Assembly: GCA_043798435.1 (NCBI GenBank)
Contig: JAZDOR010000010.1
Coordinates: 1-49,388, forward strand
DNA length: 49,388 nt
Direction of reading: 5' to 3'
Source: a bacterium
GTDB lineage: Bacteria; UBA9089; UBA9088; JAGUXG01
The position numbers and the translations under genes were made by a program. The notes below the pieces were generated by a model. It ran no database searches and was not told the origin of the DNA. It saw only the letters and a list, made by a program, of their open reading frames with translations. Below, in pieces: positions 178-43,682 of this stretch (its first letter is position 1; the number at the start of each line of letters is the position of its first letter).

Positions 178-3100
178 TTACAACAAATGAATCTCCATAT
201 GATACTCCTGAATGGGTTTTACCTCTATCTTTCCATTTATCAAGGCTGATATGCCATCGGCTGAGGCTAATGCCCCGGGGATGGTAGTGATAATAGGAAT
301 ATTATAGGCATAGGCAGTTGTTCTTATCTTCACCTCATCCTGCCTTGGTCTCTTTCCAGAGGGTGTGTTTATGACTAAGGCTATCTGGCCATTCTTCATC
401 TCGTCTATAATGTCAGGTCTCCCCTCCCCTAAGCGAAATACATTTTCACAAGCAATCCCATGTGACTTGAGAAATTTTGATGTTCCGGTAGTGCCAACTA
501 TAGCAAAACCCATATCAAAAAATTTCTTTGCTACAGGCAACACCTTCTCCTTTTCTCTATCTGTCACGCTGATAAAGACGCTTCCCTTCTTTGGCAGGAT
601 TTGTCCCGCTGCCATCTGTGCCTTAGCAAAAGCCATCCCAAAACTTGAGTCTATGCCCATAACCTCGCCAGTTGACCTCATCTCAGGGCCAAGTATAGTA
701 TCTACCCCTGAAAATCTTGTCCAGGGAAAGACAACCTCTTTGACACAAGCTATGTTTGGTATTATCTCACGAGTGAAGCCAAGATCCTTGAGCTTCTTCC
801 CGATCATTACCTTTGTTGCCAGCCTTGCCAAGGATACACCAATAGCCTTTGAGACAAAGGGTATTGTTCGTGATGCCCTTGGGTTTACCTCCAGGACATA
901 GACCTCATCATCTTTGATGGCATACTGAATATTTATCAAGCCAATCACACCAAGCTCTTTGGCTAAGGAATATGTGTTCTGCCTGATCTTTTCAAGGATA
1001 CCCGCAGAAAGTGTATGTGTTGGAAGGACACAGGCAGAATCACCTGAGTGAACACCTGCATACTCAATATGCTCCATAATCCCACCCAAGACAGTCGTCT
1101 CTCCATCTGAAATGGCATCCGCATCAATCTCAATAGCATCCTCAAGGAATTTATCCACAAGGACAGGATGAGAAGGAGAGGCCTCAACCGCCTCCCGCAT
1201 ATATTTCTCCAAATCTTCTTCATCATAGACAATTTCCATTGCCCGTCCACCTAAAACATAGGAAGGACGCATCAAAACCGGATAGCCTATTTCTTCGGCA
1301 ATCTTTTTTGCCTCTTGTGGGGATGTGCCTGTATCATTAGGGGTTTGCTTGAGCCCGATTTTTTGCAGTAGCTCCTTAAAGCGTTTGCGGTCTTCTGCCC
1401 TGTCTATGGAATCAGTTGAAGTGCCGAGAATTTTCACCCCTGCCTTCTCTAATTGAAGAGCCAGATTTAATGGTGTCTGTCCCCCAAGCTGGATAATCAC
1501 ACCCTCTGGTTTTTCTTTGTCTATAATATTCAGGATGTCTTCCAGAGTCATTGGTTCAAAGTAGAGCTTGTCTGATGTATCATAATCCGTGGAGACTGTC
1601 TCAGGGTTGCAGTTTATCATAATGGATTCAACCCCCTCTTCTTTCAAGGCAAAGGATGCCTGACAGCAACAGTAGTCAAACTCTATGCCCTGGCCTATTC
1701 TGTTTGGTCCACCACCCAGAATGATTACCTTCTTTCTATTGGATGGAGTTGTCTCATCCTCTTCTTCATAAGTAGAGTAATAATAAGGCGTGGTTGATTC
1801 AAACTCTGCCGCACAGGTATCCACTAACTTAAAGACAGGCTCTATGCCCTTGCCTTTTCTGAAACTACGAATAGACATCTCATCTGAGTCTAACAAATAC
1901 GCCAACTGCCTATCGCTAAACCCATATTGCTTAGCCTTTCGCAGTAGTTCACTTGAGATTCGGGGTTCGGGGTTCGGGGATCGGGGATCGGGGATCGGGG
2001 ATCGGGGATCGGGGTTCGGGGATCGGGGATCGGGGGTCAAGGTTCCAGGTTCCAGGTTCAAGGTTCCAGGTTCCAGGTTCAAGGTTATAGGTTCCAGATT
2101 CAAGGTTATAGGTTCCAGGTTCAAGGTTCCAGGTTCAAGGGTCAAGGTTATAGGTTCTAGGGTCAAGGTTCTATGTTCTAAGTTTAAGGTTCTATGTTCT
2201 ATGTTCAAGGTTCTATGTTCTAAGTTTAAGGTTCTATGTTCAAGGTTCAAGGTTCTGTATTCTGGATTCTGAATTCTGAATTCTGAATTCTGGATTCTGT
2301 CTTCTGTCTTCTGAATTCTGGATTCTTCCTCCTGACTCCTGTCTTCTGTATTCTGTATTCTGTATTCTGGATTCTGAATTCTTCCTCCTGACTCCTGTCT
2401 TCTGTATTCTGTATTCTGGATTCTGAATTCTGGATTCTGAATTCTTTCTCCTGACACCTGACCCCTGACCCCTGACCCCTGACCCCTGATCTCTTCCTCC
2501 ATCTCCACAATCTGCCTGATATTCTCCAAAAACCACCTATCTATCTTAGTCAACTGATATATCTCTTCTATTCCCATCCCCATCTTAATCGCCTCTCTGA
2601 TATAAAAAATCCTCTCAGAATTTGGCACAACCAACTTTTCTTTAATCCTCTCTTCTGTATTCTGTATTCTGTATTCTGTATTCTGTATCCTATCCTTTCC
2701 ATCCCCACCAAGCCCTGCTCTACCTATCTCCAAAGACCTCAATCCTTTCTGTAAAGCCTCCTTGAATGTCCTGCCAATAGCCATTGCCTCGCCCACAGAT
2801 TTCATTGAGGTTGTAAGCACATCCGTAGCTTGAGCAAACTTTTCAAAGGTAAACCTGGGAATCTTGATGACGCAGTAATCAATGGTCGGCTCAAATGAGG
2901 CTGGGGTTTTTTTGGTAATATCATTGGGAATCTCATCAAGGGTATAGCCAACAGCCAGCTTTGCCGCAATTTTAGCAATTGGAAAACCAGTAGCCTTTGA
3001 GGCAAGGGCAGAGCTTCTTGATACCCTTGGGTTTATCTCAATCACCACCATCCGACCGTCCTCAGGATTTATAGCAAACTGAACATTTGAGCCGCCTGTC

Positions 3101-3933
3101 TGGACGCCAATCTCACGGATGACAGCAATCGCTGCATCCCTCATCTTCTGGTATTCTTTGTCTGTAAGGGTCTGAGCAGGGGCAACGGTGATGGAATCCC
3201 CTGTATGAACACCCATCGGATCAAGATTTTCTATAGAGCAGATGATGACCACATTATCCTTGACATCACGCATTACCTCAAGTTCATACTCCTTCCAGCC
3301 AAGAACAGATTCTTCAATCAGGATTTCACCAATCATACTTGCCTCTATTCCGGATTGAGAAAACCCGACAAACTCCTCTTTATTAAAGGCAATCCCTCCA
3401 CCTGTTCCACCAAGGGTGAAGCTCGGTCGTATAACCAGAGGAAACCCCAATTCTTCTGCTACTTTCCAGGCATCTTCCATAGTGTATGCCAGCCCACTCC
3501 TTGGCACATCCAAGCCAATCTTCTCCATAGCCTCCTTGAACTGCTTTCTATCCTCTGCCTTTTTGATAGCAGCATAATCCGCACCAATCATTTCAACGCC
3601 AAACCTCTCTAAGATACCCATTTCCGCCACCTTCACCGCCACATTAAGTCCGGTCTGCCCCCCTAAGGTCGGCAGGATGGCATCAGGACGCTCTTTCTCA
3701 ATAATCTTGGCTACAATCTCAGGGGTAACAGGCTCAATATATATTCGGTCTGCTGTCTGTGGATCAGTCATAATCGTAGCAGGGTTTGAATTTATCAGGA
3801 CGACAGAGTACCCCTCTTCCTTCAGAGCCTTGCAAGCCTGAGTGCCTGAGTAGTCAAACTCACAGCCCTGGCCGATGATAATAGGCCCTGCACCTATGAT
3901 TAAAATTTTGTGCAAATCTCGTCGTTTTGGCAT
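178..3933 (-). CDS. carB: Carbamoyl-phosphate synthase large subunit carrying a ~175-aa low-complexity insertion
   Basis: 1251-aa ORF with two ATP-grasp halves ([19 protein letters not shown]; [19 protein letters not shown]) and an MGS-like C-terminus. It is about 180 aa longer than typical CarB because of the repeat-encoded segment at 1961-2499. Confidence 0.95.
1961..2499. repeat. 77 consecutive phase-locked heptanucleotide words inside carB
   Basis: Counted by hand with no indel in the 7-nt register. Word blocks: CGGGGWT x11 (1961-2037), CMAGGTT/ATAGGTT/CTATGTT types (2038-2254), CTGNATT/CTGTCTT/CTGACTC types (2255-2457), CTGACCC (2458-2492). Confidence 0.95.
2648..2689. repeat. Second, short heptamer tract (CTGTATT x5-6) inside carB
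   Basis: ctctctt ctgtatt x4 ctgtatc, translated in frame as [15 protein letters not shown] in a variable linker of the CarB oligomerisation domain. Confidence 0.9.
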
Positions 3934-8839: not shown

Positions 8840-8919
8840 GGTTCTGAGGTTCACGGTTCAAGGTTAAAGAATAAGAAGATTAACCGTGAATCTTGAACCC
8901 TTTAACCCCTGAACCTGAG
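8840..8919. repeat. Heptamer-word inverted repeat (GGTTCAA/GGTTCTG words)
   Basis: ggttctgaggttcacggttcaaggttaaag ... ttaaccgtgaatcttgaaccctttaacccctgaacctgag. Same word family as carB block 2 and as 47779-47865. Confidence 0.8.
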
Positions 8920-9275
8920 TAGTTACTTTTTTGTAAACCAATTTCTTTTCGGTATATTATCCACTTTACACCCTCCTTGATATCTTCACCAATCTTTTTT
9001 CCTAAGGCATTTATAGGATAATGGACATTTTCTCCATTTCTGAGACAGAATTATGGCTCCGGTTGATGGCTATACGAGTTGACGAAGAATATCTTCTCTT
9101 CTTTGGGTTCAAACTCTCCAAAAGAGAAGAATGCCTGGGGAGGAGAAAGAAAGGCTTAACAGAACATTTCCTATCACAGCTTAGATGAATCTTTCGTATC
9201 TTGCAGGAATTCTTCTCTGTCTCTAATTGGGTCAATTACCTAAACTCTATCTCCATCTCCTTTTCTTGCACTACC

Positions 9276-11093
9276 CTACCTTTTTGCTTTGGCAGAACGC
9301 TTTCTATCGTTTTCGTCCAGAAGCCGCTTTCGGAGTCGGATAGAGAGGGGGGTGACCTCAACAAGTTCATCATCTGAGATAAACTCTATTGCCTGCTCAA
9401 GGGAGAGCGAGCGTGGAGGGGTGAGCTGAATATTTTCATCGCTGCTTGCGGCACGCATATTGGTCAGCTTCTTTGATTTAAGAGGGTTGACCACAAGGTC
9501 ATTCTCCCGTGAATGCTCTCCAATAATCATTCCACCGTAACATTTTACCCCTGGTCCGATAAAGAGCACCCCTCGCTCCTGAAGATTGAAGAGGCCATAA
9601 GCCACAGCGATACCCTGTTCCATTGCCAGCAAAACTCCTCGAGAGCGAGTCAGAATCTCGCCCTTGTATGGGCCGTAGCAATCAAAGACATGATGGAGAA
9701 CACCAGTTCCTCTTGTTTCAATAATAAGCTCAGACTGGAGACCAAACAGACCGCGGGAGGGGATTCTGTATTCAAACCTGGCTCTGCCATCCCTGCCGAT
9801 ATGATGATGGAGAATCTCACCCTTTCGCCTGCCAAGTTTTTCAATCACTATGCCCTGATAAACTTCCTCCACATCCACTGTTAAGAGCTCATATGGTTCA
9901 AGCCTCTCACCATTGATTTTTTTGAGAATTACATGCGGCTTAGAGACAGCGAGCTCATAGCCCTCCCTTCTCATATTTTCAATCAGTATAGAAAGGTGCA
10001 GCTCACCTCGTCCGGATACCTTAAAGATACCATTTTCCATCTCCTCAACCCGCAGGCTGACATTTGTTCTAATCTCCCGAAAGAGTCGTTCACGAAGATG
10101 ACGGCTGGTGAGATATTGCCCTTCAGTTCCAGCAAGCGGTGAGTTATTCACCATAAATTCCATTGTCATAGTTGGCTCACCGATATCTATCGGTGGAAGT
10201 GGCTGAGGATTCTCTAAATCAGCTATAGTTTCGCCAATCTCTATTCCCTCCAGACCCGCGATTGCCACTACATCACCCGCCTCTGCAGAATTAATATCTG
10301 TCCGCTCAAGCCCGTAGAATCCATACAGCTTTGTTACCTTGCCTTTTTCAATACTGCCGTCCCGCTTGATACGAACTATGGGGTTTCCGATATTCAGGAT
10401 ACCGTTTTCAATCTTTCCTATAGCTATACGACCCACATAGTTATCGTAGTCAAGCGTAGTCACTAACATTTGCAAGGGGAGACGAGAAGATCCAGATGGA
10501 GGGGGAATATGGGTTAAAATCATCTCAAAAAGTGGACTGAGGTTTTTCCCTGGGGTCTTGATGTTGCACATCGCATAGCCTTCCTTAGCTGAGGCATAAA
10601 TGATGGGAAAGTCAAGTTGCGTATCATTGGCACAAAGTTGAGCAAAGAGATCAAAGGTTTCCGACACGACCTCGTCAGGCCGAGCCTCCAGGCGATCTAC
10701 CTTGTTTATCACCACAATCGGACAGAAGCCAAGCTGAAGCGATTTAGCCAGGACAAATTTAGTCTGTGGCATCGGCCCATCCACAGCATCCACAAGAAGC
10801 AGAACCCCGTCAACCATCTTGAGAATCCGTTCCACCTCTCCGCTGAAATCCGCATGGCCTGGCGTGTCAACGATGTTTATTTTATGCCCCTGATAATGGA
10901 TAGCGGTATTTTTCGCCAGGATAGTAATCCCGCGTTCCCGTTCAAGATCATTAGAATCCATCACCCGCTCACAAACAGTCTGATGCTCACCAAAGGTGCC
11001 GCTCTGGCGAAGCAAGCCATCCACAAGCGTGGTCTTTCCATGATCTACATGCGAAATGATAGCGATGTTACGAATTTTTTTCTGAGTGCTCAT
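9276..11093 (-). CDS. typA: Translational GTPase TypA/BipA
   Basis: [27 protein letters not shown] and NKVDR G-motifs; EF-G-like domains; C-terminal [20 protein letters not shown]. The start is set at the internal ATG (11093) in front of the G1 motif. Confidence 0.93.
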
Positions 11094-11221
11094 GTTTATT
11101 TGTAATAGTTTTTCTTCTTGCAAGTCAATATCAATATAGCATCTTTGAGAGGATATATCAAGAAAAATCAACTCTTCTCCAAAATATTGACAAAGACAAA
11201 CCTTCCTAATATAATTGAGGC

Positions 11222-17550: not shown

Positions 17551-17615
17551 AGAAATTAAATAGCACTCAGCTGTCAGCGTTCAGCCAAAAAATATCTGAA
17601 AGCTGATTAGTCAGT

Positions 17616-17759
17616 AAGTAAAAATAACTTCTACATCTTGCTTGTCTTTTGCTCCGTCTTCTGCGTTGTGCCAAAGGTTACATAGCGTTGCTATGCGCCC
17701 TTTGGCACGCCTTGAATACGAAACAAAATCCTACGCAATATATGGAAGTTATTTTTACT
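17616..17759 (-). other. Long (~144 nt) imperfect hairpin in the hldD-upstream intergenic region
   Basis: The outer stem is agtaaaaataacttc/gaagttatttttact (15 bp, perfect). The apical stem is gtgccaaagg/cctttggcac (10 bp), enclosing catagc/gctatg. Several C-A mismatches on the plus strand become G-U on the minus-strand RNA. Confidence 0.5.
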
Positions 17760-17788
17760 CACTTCCTTACCAATAGCTGAAGATTTTT

Positions 17789-31783: not shown

Positions 31784-31827
31784 AATTTAGTAATAACGAT
31801 TAAGTCTTAAAATCACATACAGGTGTT

Positions 31828-31871
31828 CTCATTCTGACTCCTGTATTCTGAATTCTGTATTCTTGCTACCT
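31828..31871. repeat. 44-nt copy (43/44 identical) of the 5-prime flank of the four-helix-bundle cassette
   Basis: ctcattctgactcctgtattctgaattctgtAttcttgctacct, compared with 40766-40809 which has C at the capitalised position. Confidence 0.95.
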
Positions 31872-31877
31872 GAGCAA

Positions 31878-32792
31878 TTATGGTCTTGGAAGCAAACCAG
31901 CCTTTTCTACAATAACTGGCACAGCCTCTTCCCATTCTATAGCCATAATATGGACACCAGCGACACCCTCAATTTTCTTTAATCTTTCTATAGCCTCTAC
32001 ACATATTTTTATCCCTTCTTCTTTGGGATTGGAAGCCTCCTTTACCCTATTCATCAGTTCTTCTGGCACATTTACGCCAGCAACATTATTATTCATATAC
32101 TTAGCCATACCAAAGGACTTCAGCGGTATCAGACCAACCAAAAGATGAGCCTTTGTATCCAGCCCCATCTGCCTTACCTCTTTCATCCACTCCTCAAGTC
32201 TATCTATATCATAGATAGCCTGGGTCTGAATAAAGTCTGCACCTGCCTGTATCTTCTTCCTGAGCCTGAAAATCCTGATCTCGGTTGGGTCGGAGAATGG
32301 AGACTCAGCCGCACCAATGAACATTCTCGGTTCTACATCCTTAATCTCTTCTCCGCATATAAATTTTTTATCATTACCCATTCCTTTGACTGCTGCCACA
32401 AGCTGAATTGAATCAAGGTCAAAAACATTCTTTGCCTGCGGATGATTGCCAAACTTCTGGTGGTCTCCTGTCAGGCAGAGGATATTCCTTATTCCCAAAG
32501 CATACGCACCCAAAATATCAGACTGCATAGCAATCCTATTTCTATCGCGGGTGACCATTTGCATAATCGGCTCTAAGCCCAAGGAGACCAGAATAGAAGA
32601 TGCAGCTATAGAGCTCATCCTAACAATGGCTGTCTGATTGTCAGTAACATTGACCGCATCAACAAACCCTTTAAGAATCCCTGCCTTCTTTTCAATCACA
32701 GCTCTATCCGCATTCTTTGGGGGGCCAAGCTCAGAGGTAACCACAAAATTTCCAGACGATAAGAGTTTCTCTAAATTACTTCCTGATTTCAT
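31878..32792 (-). CDS. metF: Methylenetetrahydrofolate reductase, acetogen-type catalytic subunit
   Basis: FVVTSELGPPK, VNVTDNQ, MVTRDRNRIA and LCLTGDH motifs. Adjacent to metV. Confidence 0.88.
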   Translation of the reverse strand: MKSGSNLEKLLSSGNFVVTSELGPPKNADRAVIEKKAGILKGFVDAVNVTDNQTAIVRMSSIAASSILVSLGLEPIMQMVTRDRNRIAMQSDILGAYALGIRNILCLTGDHQKFGNHPQAKNVFDLDSIQLVAAVKGMGNDKKFICGEEIKDVEPRMFIGAAESPFSDPTEIRIFRLRKKIQAGADFIQTQAIYDIDRLEEWMKEVRQMGLDTKAHLLVGLIPLKSFGMAKYMNNNVAGVNVPEELMNRVKEASNPKEEGIKICVEAIERLKKIEGVAGVHIMAIEWEEAVPVIVEKAGLLPRP

Positions 32793-38606: not shown

Positions 38607-38771
38607 GTAAGCGTTCAGGTAGTATAAGAAAAAGGGATATGGGGAAGGTTAATAGAAGTCAGAATTCAGGAGTCATGAATTAGAATACAGGAGTCAGAAT
38701 ATTCTTAATTCTGGATTCTGTATTCTGTATTCTGTATTCTCTCTCGTTTAATACATAGCCTGAACGGTTAC
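38607..38771. repeat. 165-bp nested palindromic element with GTAAGCGTTCAGGT/CCTGAACGGTTAC termini enclosing an empty four-helix-cassette scar
   Basis: The termini are at 38607-38620 and 38759-38771. The inner agaatacaggagtcagaat (38682-38700) is the exact reverse complement of attctgactcctgtattct at 40769-40787 and 31831-31849. Confidence 0.85.
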
Positions 38772-40192: not shown

Positions 40193-40391
40193 TTAACTCC
40201 TCCTTATTTTAGATTGCCTATCTTTGAAGCCAAAGGCTTTCCATTAGATTAGGCTTCCTTATATCTCTTATATATTAACTCCGGCCTTAAATATTCCTCA
40301 CCTCCTTGGTGGCATTTTTGGAGCTTGCTAATTAAGATAACATTATCTTATACTTGTTTTGTATCTTTGTCAAGATAATTCTGTAACTATT

Positions 40392-40425
40392 CAGAATACA
40401 GAATTCAGGAGTCAGAATCCAGAAT
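40392..40425. repeat. 3-prime flank of the four-helix-bundle cassette (heptamer words)
   Basis: cagaatacagaattcaggagtcagaatccagaat. It encodes the last 6 aa of the protein and is an approximate inverted copy of 40769-40800. Confidence 0.85.
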
Positions 40426-40770
40426 AGCCCCAGAGTAAGATTCTAATAATTTGCTGACTTCTTCGAGTAGGAGCAATAGTTTTGAAGAATCACCATACTC
40501 CAAATCATTAGCCAGGATTAAGTAATAACGAGACTCTTCTAATGACCCTTGAGCTATATTTAAGTAGCGAACCTTGTCCGCCCTGCCTTTTTTCTTAAAT
40601 CCCTCGGCAATATTTGCGGGAATTGAGGCTGCCGATCTTCGAAATTGAGATGTCAAACCATACATTTCCTCTTTAGGAAACTTTCTTGTAAAGATATAAA
40701 TATTCAGAACAAACTGATGGGCTTTTTGCCACACAATCAAATCTTGAAAACTGCGTGCAGGTTCTCTCAT
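40405..40770 (-). CDS. Four-helix-bundle protein (23S rRNA intervening-sequence protein family)
   Basis: FQDLIVWQKAHQFVLNIY, SQFRRSAASIPANIAEG and AQGSLEESRYYLILANDLEY are hallmark motifs. Confidence 0.85.
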   Translation of the reverse strand: MREPARSFQDLIVWQKAHQFVLNIYIFTRKFPKEEMYGLTSQFRRSAASIPANIAEGFKKKGRADKVRYLNIAQGSLEESRYYLILANDLEYGDSSKLLLLLEEVSKLLESYSGAILDSDS

Positions 40771-40809
40771 TCTGACTCCTGTATTCTGAATTCTGTCTTC
40801 TTGCTACCT
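40766..40809. repeat. 5-prime flank of the four-helix-bundle cassette
   Basis: ctcattctgactcctgtattctgaattctgtcttcttgctacct. It contains the gene's ATG and is 43/44 identical to 31828-31871. Confidence 0.95.
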
Positions 40810-40830
40810 AATTATTTGAAATCTGTGGAT

Positions 40831-42464: not shown

Positions 42465-43265
42465 TTAGCGTGTTTCGTAGTCTCCTTTTGCAGCGACCAG
42501 GACTTCTTCCTGTATCTTCTGAAGCTGGGATGAAATGGTAGCATCTATTATCCCAAACCCTGTCTGAACCTTGCATCCACCCTGTTCAATGGAAGGGTCT
42601 TCTCTAATATCTATCCTTTTGCCTCCTGAACTCTTCAAAATCCTTTCCTTCCATTCTGAAGCCACCTCAAAATCAGCAAGATTTACTAAGACCGTTATAC
42701 TTTCCTCGGAAAGCCCCCTTTTTATCGCCATCTCTATGTTGGACAAGACAACCTTTTTATTGCCTTTTATCTCCTCCTTTATTATCTTTTCAGCAATCAT
42801 TATGGCCAGCCCAACTACAACCTCCGCCTCTGCCTTCTTTGTTGCCTCTTCATATACCTTGGATAATGAGGAGAGCGTATTAGTAAAACCAGTAATAAGC
42901 CTGTTCGCCTCTATCTCTCCCTTTCTCTTTCCATCCGCCCTTCCCTCATCAAACCCTTTTTTGAAGGCTGAATCAGTTATCTCGGAAACCTTCTTCTTTG
43001 CCTCTTCTTCTGCCTTCCTGATTATATCTTCACACCTCTTTTCCGCTTCCTTTCTTACATAGCCTTCTACATCAGAAAGCACCCTGCTCCTTTCTTCTAT
43101 CTGATTATTTATCTCTAAAAGCCCTTGTTCTGCTACCCGTATCTTATTTTCAAGCCTCTCAATCAGATTCCGTCCTTCTCCTAAACCAGAAAATGCCTTT
43201 GGGTCTATGACTACATCCGAACTTAGAACAGGCTGCTTATAAACGCTATTCAATGATTGACTCAC
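42465..43265 (-). CDS. fliH: Flagellar assembly protein FliH-like
   Basis: Lies downstream of fliG. Long charged coiled coil, then KKGFDEGRADGKRKG and LAIMIAEKIIKEEI. GTG start inside repeat unit A. Confidence 0.65.
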   Translation of the reverse strand: MSQSLNSVYKQPVLSSDVVIDPKAFSGLGEGRNLIERLENKIRVAEQGLLEINNQIEERSRVLSDVEGYVRKEAEKRCEDIIRKAEEEAKKKVSEITDSAFKKGFDEGRADGKRKGEIEANRLITGFTNTLSSLSKVYEEATKKAEAEVVVGLAIMIAEKIIKEEIKGNKKVVLSNIEMAIKRGLSEESITVLVNLADFEVASEWKERILKSSGGKRIDIREDPSIEQGGCKVQTGFGIIDATISSQLQKIQEEVLVAAKGDYETR

Positions 43266-43682
43266 CTCCTTTCCAGTAGCGACTAATCATAATCTCGTCC
43301 TGTTCCTCTAATTGCCTAACCACAACTATTATCTTCTGTTGAGCCTCTTCTACTTCGGAGAGTCTCATCGGTCCAAGGCAGGAAATCTCCTTATTCAATG
43401 ATTGACTCACCCCCTTTGCCACCCCGACTAATCATAATCTCACCCTGCTCTTCTAATTGTCGCACTACAACTATTATCTTCTGTTGAGCCTCTTCTACTT
43501 CGGAGAGTCTCATCGGTCCAAGGCAGGAAATCTCCTTATTCAATGATTGACTCACCCCCTTTTCCACCCCGACTGATCATAATCTCACCCTGCTCCTCTA
43601 ATTGCCTAACCACAACTATTATCTTCTGTTGAGCCTCTTCTACCTCGGAGAGTCTCATCGGTCCAAGATAGGAAATCTCCTC
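43246..43682. repeat. Tandem triplication (3 x 145 bp) of the fliG 3-prime end / fliH start junction
   Basis: The anchor attcaatgattgactcac occurs at 43248, 43393 and 43538. The units are more than 90% identical by eye. Confidence 0.95.

Follow-up and report, generated by a model that had tools for sequence, protein, structure and literature searches.

A four-helix-bundle gene of the 23S rRNA intervening-sequence type as the probable cargo of an IS66-type mobile insertion cassette

We describe here a short element found in a 49 388-nt stretch of bacterial DNA (contig JAZDOR010000010.1 of GenBank assembly GCA_043798435.1, lineage UBA9089; UBA9088; JAGUXG01), the whole of which is called the window below. 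The element lies between pilM and a porin-like gene and is probably a mobile insertion cassette (MIC) of ∼436 bp, devoid of transposase and related to insertion sequences (ISs) of the IS66/ISBst12 type, whose sole gene codes for a four-helix-bundle (4HB) protein of the kind encoded by intervening sequences (IVSs) of 23S rRNA. Its layout would be a terminal inverted repeat (TIR) of the IS66/ISBst12 type, four to five heptamers (CAGAATN/CAGGAGT), the open reading frame (ORF), the heptamers in inverted orientation and the inverted terminal repeat. Such a unit would have entered, as DNA, the spacer that separates pilM from the promoter of the porin-like gene, its movement being presumably catalysed in trans by an IS66-family (ISBst12-group) DDE transposase able to recognise the GTAAC... 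ends. What carries this reading is the anatomy of the element, a series of deletion derivatives, the 8-bp target duplications of the family, its presence or absence at given sites in congeneric genomes and its travel across phyla together with arms made of the same words. A first-pass annotation, made from the letters of the window alone, had suggested a functional or mobile unit made up of the protein and the flanking stems. The IS66-type ends, the duplications, the filled and empty sites and the fact that this combination of protein and words exists in about ten phyla now speak for mobility.

The genome of origin (G000) is a fragmented metagenome-assembled genome (MAG), 84% complete with an estimated contamination of 3%; its assembly consists of 233 contigs (the C numbers used below) and amounts to 2.23 Mb with 40.8% G+C. 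The gene of interest is an intact minus-strand ORF (40405-40770) of 121 codons for amino acids, which by itself fills the interior of the cassette; there is no transposase inside. In profile searches, its product matched PF05635 (23S_rRNA_IVP) over positions 1-104 of the 106 of the profile (E = 5.5e-37, 126.7 bits for a cut-off of 33.8 bits) and TIGR02436, ‘four helix bundle protein’ (E = 2.3e-34, 117.9 bits for a cut-off of 24 bits), and it is therefore a full-length member of this family, above both curated cut-offs. The closest solved structure is that of Xanthomonas XCC0516 (PDB 2GSC, E = 1.5e-16); this entry and that of another solved relative, 2RLD, contain five chains each, and a protein of the 4HB family is stated to be a pentamer (PMC4990558). 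The same fold family includes Avd (bAvd, PF22296/NF033474), the accessory protein of diversity-generating retroelements (DGRs). Identity of the window protein with Avd was ruled out by scores and context: it falls below both Avd cut-offs (NF033474, 31.7 bits for a cut-off of 80; PF22296, 27.5 bits for a cut-off of 40) and neither a reverse transcriptase nor template/variable repeats were found within ±3 kb of its gene.

The two arms that surround the gene are 93% complementary over 27 nt (40392-40418 and 40769-40795, 350 nt apart) and 79% complementary in a longer version of 33 nt. The flanking strings quoted in the first-pass annotation are present where it placed them, and they do form the approximate inverted repeat that it had claimed. 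Both arms are built from CAGAATN/CAGGAGT heptamers and both contribute to the gene: the 3′ arm encodes its last six codons (AILDSDS tail) and its TGA stop, the ATG is the end of a CAGAATG word of the 5′ arm, and a Shine-Dalgarno (SD) sequence, AGGAG, is provided 5 nt upstream of the ATG by the word CAGGAGT. Just outside the arms, many copies of the element display an outer motif, GTAACTATTCAGGTAGCAAGAA, and its inverse. In the window copy, the terminus GTAACTATTCAGAAT resembles the TIR of ISDge4, GTAACTGCTCAGCA.

The genome contains deletion derivatives of this cassette at 12 further loci at least, as revealed by a list of short inverted repeats and by blastn with the 436-nt sequence. These miniature copies, or minis, keep the arms together with the first ∼35-50 nt and the last ∼50-110 nt of the ORF, the middle being deleted (the junctions are given in Table 1). 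Arms-only hairpins are found on C38 and C178. The claim of the first-pass annotation that the intergenic repeat family of the window is tied to IVS-like cassettes was thus well founded, since at least 12 CAGAAT-armed hairpins that looked ‘gene-less’ are in fact internally deleted copies. The window copy is the only cassette of the CAGAAT family with an intact gene in the 84%-complete assembly.

The ends of the family members point to the type of transposon involved. Clear GTAAC ends are present in the copies of C135, C148, C46, C39 and C4 and in three homologues from other genomes, L125, L111 and L122; ends of the form GTAA[C/G]NNTTCAGG... also bound several other abundant repeat families of the genome. 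Among element-sized GTAAC...GTTAC pairs, 57 out of 151 are flanked by perfect 8-bp direct repeats and 15 more by repeats with one mismatch, as against 0 out of 151 perfect repeats, and none with fewer than two mismatches, in controls shifted by 12 nt. The duplicated 8-mers vary from copy to copy, as expected of target duplications; for instance, AGATTTTT is present on both sides (8/8) of the mini 4HB cassette at C135:2002-2217. The inverted repeats of IS66 elements are 20-30 bp long, start with GTAAGCG and are accompanied by 8-bp direct repeats (PMC11946415), and ISDge4, of the ISBst12 group, has GTAACTGCTCAGCA and GTGACTACTCAGCA as TIRs and an 8-bp direct repeat (PMC12898284). The GTAAC... 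ends and 8-bp duplications of the family are hallmarks of IS66 elements. A fragment of an IS66-family transposase (PF03050, DDE_Tnp_IS66; 48.8 bits) is present at the edge of contig C211, where it adjoins an IS end (...AAATAGTTAC / ...GAGTAAATAGTTAC / ...CTTCAGATGAGTAAATAGTTAC), and related transposase fragments are found in sister genomes. We also noted a high-copy repeat, AGAAATTGGTTTACAAAAAA-GTAACTACTCAGGTTCAGGGGTTAAAGGGTTCAAGGTTCACGGTTAATCC, with 52 copies (e.g. window 8912-8926, minus strand) and a terminus almost identical with the TIR of ISDge4; since several copies lie near contig ends, it probably contributes to assembly breakage.

Comparison with congeneric genomes, G001 (the nearest one, of the same genus, with a PilM 91% identical) and G002, revealed filled versus empty family sites in six or more spacers. 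In the thi4 operon (X-fdx-thi4-sufC), each insert of G000 is located between a stop codon and the ribosome-binding site of the next gene: ∼170 nt at the X-fdx junction, where the G001 genes overlap, ∼230 nt at the fdx-thi4 junction, reduced to 9 nt in G001, and ∼190 nt at the thi4-sufC junction, for 6 nt in G001. The fdx-thi4 insert is a mini 4HB cassette with an 8/8 duplication. At the C4 locus, the spacer is of 206 nt with a mini in G000 and of 33 nt in G001. The C148 locus combines three states: a CAGAAT mini in G000, a TTAGCAA-type 4HB mini with an 8-bp duplication, AAGAAAAT, in G001, and an empty spacer of 33-35 nt in G002, the sequence of which, AAAATTAG, is matched by the G000 flanks once these are joined (AAAA/ATTAG). 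Upstream of tsaD (C208 locus), G000 has a CAGAAT mini and G001 a TTAGCAA mini nested in two other shells of MITEs (transposable elements of the miniature inverted-repeat type). For the C41 and C46 loci, the flanks had no adjacent orthologous matches in G001 or G002. The direction of the events, i.e. insertion, was deduced from the TIRs and duplications, as genomes further away are too diverged to polarise them; Thi4, for one, is only ∼43% identical in same-order genomes, too distant for polarising the thi4-operon inserts. The filled and empty sites represent insertion polymorphisms within one genus.

The unit is not confined to this genus. The closest homologues of the window protein (65-80% amino-acid identity) come from about ten phyla, their hosts being Nostoc and other cyanobacteria, Peptococcaceae, Chloroflexi, Nitrospirota, Verrucomicrobiota, Acidobacteriota, Balneolaceae, Desulfobacterota and others. 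An inverted repeat between the gene ends with a score of at least 10 was found at 44 of the 75 testable homologue loci for 3 of 280 shifted controls; with a score of at least 16, the figures were 30 of 75 and 0 of 280. The arms of these homologues are made of the words CAGGAGT, CAGAAGT, CAGAATT and CAGAATC, with a median of 4.3 units per arm, and the idea that heptamer words are specific to a genome was consequently rejected for the window subfamily, the same words being found in other phyla. Full-length elements with GTAAC-type ends and a 7/8 duplication were recovered from a deltaproteobacterial MAG (L125, 432 nt) and from a Verrucomicrobiota MAG (L111, 423 nt); L122 has both GTAAC ends and no duplication. 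Most cyanobacterial copies have no recognisable GTAAC ends, though their arms are present. Among relatives from the same phylum, 17 of 27 4HB genes possess inverted arms, with other words (TAAGTCG, GTAATCG, GGGATTA, GATAATT...); CAGAATT arms recur in the only close homologue among them (G008, 225 bits). Retention of CAGAATT in this close homologue and the different words of the distant ones indicate that the words follow protein relatedness.

Heptamers are so frequent in this genome that a bracketed gene could be thought to arise by accident. The motif CAGAATNCAGAAT, with one mismatch at most, occurs 34 times in the window for an expectation of 0.45, and the genome has 319 period-7 tandem arrays, covering 19.8 kb, when any other period from 4 to 12 gives at most 65. 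They fall into 83 unit types, of which CAGAATN is the commonest (92 arrays). Inverted heptamer pairs also bracket dnaX, murF, thi4, fliR, a prepilin peptidase gene and others, so that the notion of a bracketing unique to 4HB genes had to be rejected: housekeeping genes show it too and bracketing alone is not specific to the 4HB gene. One could then argue that, with such a load of slippage-prone microsatellites in 2.2 Mb, a short gene located between two array-filled spacers was bracketed by chance, without any special link to the 4HB family, CAGAAT being simply the commonest word, and one of a repertoire whose arrays are found even in frame within carB. Because bracketing is not special in itself, we ranked 1725 ORFs of the genome by their best inverted repeat between start and stop regions. 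The window 4HB gene came 7th and the two other testable paralogues that are not of the DGR type came 25th and 32nd, all three thus within the top 32; a fourth armed paralogue, on C159, was too near the end of its contig to be ranked, but its arms are visible, and the DGR-type paralogue ranked 1530th. The chance explanation also has to cope with the location of the start and stop codons inside the arms, with the presence of the same words around the subfamily in Nostoc, Peptococcaceae, Nitrospirota, Verrucomicrobiota and others (the 44 of 75 loci mentioned above), and with the fact that distant paralogues each have words of their own. It is already disfavoured, and we regard it as very improbable.

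Another explanation would do without DNA mobility altogether. The predicted fold of the RNA has the arms closing a long stem in both the minimum free energy and the centroid structures (-122.8 kcal/mol, z = -3.54); failure of the flanks to pair upon folding would have spoken against the first-pass annotation, and they do pair. If transcription reads through from pilM, the arms would form a stem of 27-33 bp hiding the cassette's own SD and AUG, and such a stem may be a substrate for RNase III, by analogy with the ORF-bearing IVSs of 23S rRNA; RNase III is encoded in the genome (contig C155). The IVS of Coxiella burnetii has a 28-bp stem and tandem heptamers (GACAGAT) before the ATG of S23p, and is cut by RNase III (PMC4990558). 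The architecture of the window element (inverted-arm stem, ORF in the loop, tandem heptamers before the ATG) is that of the Coxiella IVS, and the first-pass annotation was right in recognising it outside of an rRNA gene. It may thus be proposed that the element operates as RNA only, a stem cleaved by RNase III serving to excise or silence the ORF and to separate the pilM and porin messages, with vertical inheritance. This does not account for the 8-bp duplications, IS66-type ends and presence/absence differences of the family, nor for the persistence of minis without usable ORF in either orientation relative to host genes, nor for near-identical protein-plus-word units in about ten phyla. We therefore find it unlikely as the sole explanation; an RNA-level role is compatible with the cassette, as a layer added to it. 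An IVS with identical stems in the 23S gene, which the first-pass annotation had proposed to look for, does not exist in G000: its 23S gene (C210:585-3839) exceeds the model by about 330-420 nt, with an ORF-less insertion of ∼120 nt at model position 583, which we take to be in the helix 25 region, and smaller expansions near 283 and 312, and it is free of heptamer arrays, CAGAAT words and 4HB ORFs. The 23S genes of two genomes of the same order, G003 and G004, exceed the model by ∼250 and ∼1045 nt, respectively.

The first-pass annotation had proposed to check whether all 4HB genes of the genome are flanked by the same words. The three other paralogues that are not of the DGR type all have inverted heptamer arms, and absence of flanks around further copies, which would have spoken against the first-pass annotation, was not observed for them; the words are not shared. 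Each gene has its own set, the four sets being CAGAATN, GAGTTTA/GAGTTAT, TTAGCAA/TTGCAAA and GCGGATT/CGAGATT. The C159-type cassette also has a mini derivative, on C201. The fifth paralogue (C100:9807-10151) is DGR Avd-like and devoid of inverted arms. Around it (region 9500-11200), a pair of ∼110-nt repeats, one on each side, is reminiscent of template and variable repeats and differs mainly at adenine-rich positions; the paralogue is followed by a GxxExxY gene in a MITE shell (C100:10838-11200). The genes of GxxExxY type (PF13366), which the first-pass annotation had proposed to examine likewise, behave similarly: three of the four full-length ones are among the top 16 of the 1725 ORFs for gene-end inverted repeats. 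Those of C100:10838-11200 and C214:1448-1825 are carried by IS66-type shells with word-repeat arms; among the MITE families of the genome, the most abundant one (GGGGATAAGGAGAT; GTAAGCGTTCAGGTAGTGTAAGAAAAGGGGATATGGAGAT...) looks like a gutted form of the C100-type cassette.

Several observations weigh against an IS66-type MIC, or at least against extending it to the window copy without reserve. This copy has one intact terminus, GTAACTATTCAGAAT, and one decayed, CTTCTTGCTACCTAATTATTTG, and no target duplication (ATAATTCT versus AAATCTGT, 4/8 for the best of two end placements), so that its own insertion is deduced from its relatives; for the same two reasons, it is probably immobile now. There is no comparable empty site for it, as synteny with G001 ends right after pilM. 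The minis do not derive from it: all of them read GAGAACACCTGCATGTAGT at the place occupied by GAGAGAACCTGCACGCAGT in the window copy, and they are 72-85% alike, which indicates that they come from another master, lost or unassembled, and that the family is not young; it is old, and no recent movement was seen. The 77/312 junction coincides with a GATTTG microhomology and may have formed on more than one occasion, rather than being inherited by the three minis that display it. The only IS66-family transposase found is the fragment at the contig edge, and the IS end there (GTAACTATTTACTCATC) matches the CAGAAT family only over its first 9 nt, GTAACTATT. Finally, none of the three other armed paralogues has GTAAC ends, which suggests that the arms-plus-gene unit is more general than its IS66 vehicle.

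This last point leads to a further possibility, in which the protein is a partner of the arms: a 4HB pentamer would bind its own heptamer arrays, as DNA or as RNA stem, and thereby aid mobilisation or maintenance of the unit or control its own translation, words and protein co-evolving and IS66 being one vehicle of several. It would explain why words track protein relatedness (CAGAATT in G008, other words in distant members), why four paralogues have four word sets in this genome, why words are kept across phyla at 65-80% protein identity and why some armed paralogues lack IS66 ends; arms typically have 4-5 units, and the solved relatives 2GSC and 2RLD are pentamers. However, if gene and arms simply descend together, as a single mobile unit, the tracking is accounted for without any binding, and conservation of the words comes in part from the SD, the ATG and the tail codons and from a resemblance to the inner TIR (TCAGG...). 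Gene-less minis persist, although the protein in trans could serve them, and Coxiella S23p appears not to be produced in vivo (PMC4990558). We hold such a partnership to be possible, not favoured. With the same reserve, a broader scheme may be envisaged, in which each 4HB lineage would read one 7-nt word (here CAGGAGT/CAGAATT, and different ones in the case of the other paralogues), a pentamer sitting on the ∼4-5 units of an arm, in DNA or in an RNA stem, and the unit would borrow whichever transposon ends are available (here IS66/ISBst12) to spread between phyla; the IVSs of 23S rRNA might then be copies landed in rRNA helices and the unexplained heptanucleotide repeats known from many genomes might be their debris.

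As to the locus, the stop codon of pilM is on one side of the cassette and the promoter-like site of the porin-like gene on the other (Table 1). The PilM gene (PF11104) is upstream of the 4HB gene and the gene for a beta-barrel protein, with an alginate-export/porin-like profile match, is downstream, all three on the minus strand; the same order of the three genes is found in an independent ENA assembly record. No promoter-like site was found in the interval between pilM and the 4HB gene. In G001, the gene after pilM is that of a UbiA-like prenyltransferase and there is no porin-like or 4HB gene; the spacer downstream of pilM (L021 4580-4914) contains a gene-less hairpin whose AAATTGC/AAATTTAGC words belong to the family found in the C159-type 4HB cassette. 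G000 has four UbiA-like prenyltransferase genes (C18, C23, C186, C86), each 82-84% identical to the single post-pilM gene of G001. Either paralogy or a mixture of strains in the bin might account for them; because of these four copies, the rearrangement at pilM is not traceable.

Table 1. Features of the cassette, its surroundings and its deleted copies (window positions, unless master coordinates are indicated)
Feature	Position	Strand	Remarks
Whole cassette (~436 nt): IS66-type end, arm, 4HB gene, arm, decayed end	40383..40818	-	By comparison with minis, L125, L111
Intact outer terminus GTAACTATTCAGAAT (3′ end in gene sense)	40383..40397	+	Fits motif GTAACTATTCAGGTA; borders minis too
3′ heptamer arm	40392..40426		Gene sense: ATTCTGG ATTCTGA CTCCTGA ATTCTGT ATTCTG
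5′ heptamer arm	40769..40801		Gene sense: AGAAGAC AGAATTC AGAATAC AGGAGTC AGAATG
Decayed outer terminus CTTCTTGCTACCTAATTATTTG (expected CTTCTTGCTACCTGAATAGTTAC)	40797..40818	+	Versus termini of C46, C135, C148
Promoter-like site TTGACA-17-TAAGAT	40345..40373	-	Just downstream of cassette, outside element, facing porin-like gene
Truncated copy: outer terminus, arm, first ~35 nt of ORF	31796..31885	-	blastn, master 7-83, 84% identity
IS66-type MITE shell (GTAAGCGTTCAGGTAG...CCTGAACGGTTAC), CAGAAT/CAGGAGT hairpin inside	38607..38771	+	Spacer on other side of porin-like gene
Minis of C135, C208, C4	Junction 77/312 (master coordinates)		Common to all three, at GATTTG microhomology
Mini of C204	Junction 90/353		Three tandem copies
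Mini of C46	Junction 82/339
Minis of C41, C148			Other deletion junctions
Copies of C29, C39, C168			Fragments of cassette

Other repeats of the window deserve mention. Within carB (1251-aa carbamoyl-phosphate synthase large subunit; ORF 178-3933, minus strand), ∼730 nt of heptamer arrays at 1960-2690 are in frame and translated (TCGGGGA ×11, TCAAGGT ×31, TTCTGTA ×27, CCTGACC ×6), with a further CAGAAT run at 2653-2688; here, the words of the cassette arms have become coding linker sequence. An element of 151 nt, at 17613-17763, is delimited by terminal inverted repeats of 29 nt (AGTGAGTAAAAATAACTTCC...); its core, 93 nt long and conserved, includes a G+C-rich hairpin. There are at least 6 near-identical copies of it, the others being at C114:3932, C145:3062, C16:8775, C225:13968 and C65:7597; lacking heptamers and GTAAC ends, it belongs to a separate MITE or small-RNA family. 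At 43247-43681, a unit of 145 nt is repeated three times in tandem (91% match) just upstream of a FliH-like gene, duplicating a 58-aa ORF (MAKGVSQSLNKEISCLGPMRLSEVEEAQQK...).

Proteins of the PF05635 family are very common and, as far as we know, have remained without known function for over 30 years; nor do we know of anyone having shown by which route gene-in-hairpin units enter rRNA genes and operon spacers. The present case is compact and internally controlled, with an intact cassette, a dozen gutted copies, defined ends, 8-bp duplications, empty sites in sister genomes and cross-phylum units, and its scattered gutted copies suggest how a gene-plus-hairpin unit spreads as DNA. It turns the vague idea of elements that were perhaps mobile once into a testable mechanism, trans-mobilisation by transposases of the ISBst12 group, and offers an origin for a part of the heptanucleotide repeat load of the genome. 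On the annotation side, a mobile cassette should be called as one feature in many cases where ‘intergenic repeats’ and a ‘hypothetical four-helix-bundle gene’ are now listed separately.

The known system closest to the cassette is the 23S rRNA IVS (Coxiella burnetii S23p; also Leptospira), which has the same PF05635 protein, inverted repeats of ∼28 bp around the ORF, heptamers before the ATG and a size of ∼430-440 nt. The IVS, however, sits in an rRNA helix (25 or 45), whereas the window cassette is located between pilM and the porin-like gene and has IS66-type outer ends. That the IVS derives from a mobile element is an old suspicion, and such an origin was noted as possible in the Coxiella study, but 8-bp duplications and many gutted copies, as found in this family, are not described for IVSs there (PMC4990558). 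Mobilisation in trans by the transposase of a cognate IS is the concept underlying MICs and MITEs (PMC3129680). The family resembles them by its inverted IS ends, absence of transposase, 8-bp duplications, GTAAC... termini, many copies and insertion polymorphism; having one passenger gene, the cassette qualifies as a MIC and its internally deleted, non-coding derivatives as MITEs. It differs from known MICs in that the passenger is an IVS-type 4HB gene enclosed by inverted heptamer arrays of its own, which carry its translation signals, and in that this gene-plus-arms unit exists across phyla with and without IS66 ends; our text searches of the literature returned no paper on 4HB genes as cargo of IS66-type cassettes. 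The GxxExxY/PDDEXK_3 (PF13366) cassettes of this genome share the packaging of the 4HB cassette, but with an unrelated protein (nuclease fold) and different words. Finally, the STRR heptanucleotide repeats of cyanobacteria are genome-wide tandem heptamers located in spacers and, to our knowledge, were described as repeats to which neither a gene nor a transposon context is assigned. CAGGAGT/CAGAATT arrays accompany the homologues of the window gene in Nostoc and Calothrix; the difference is that the heptamer arrays described here are the arms of a gene cassette and of MITEs.

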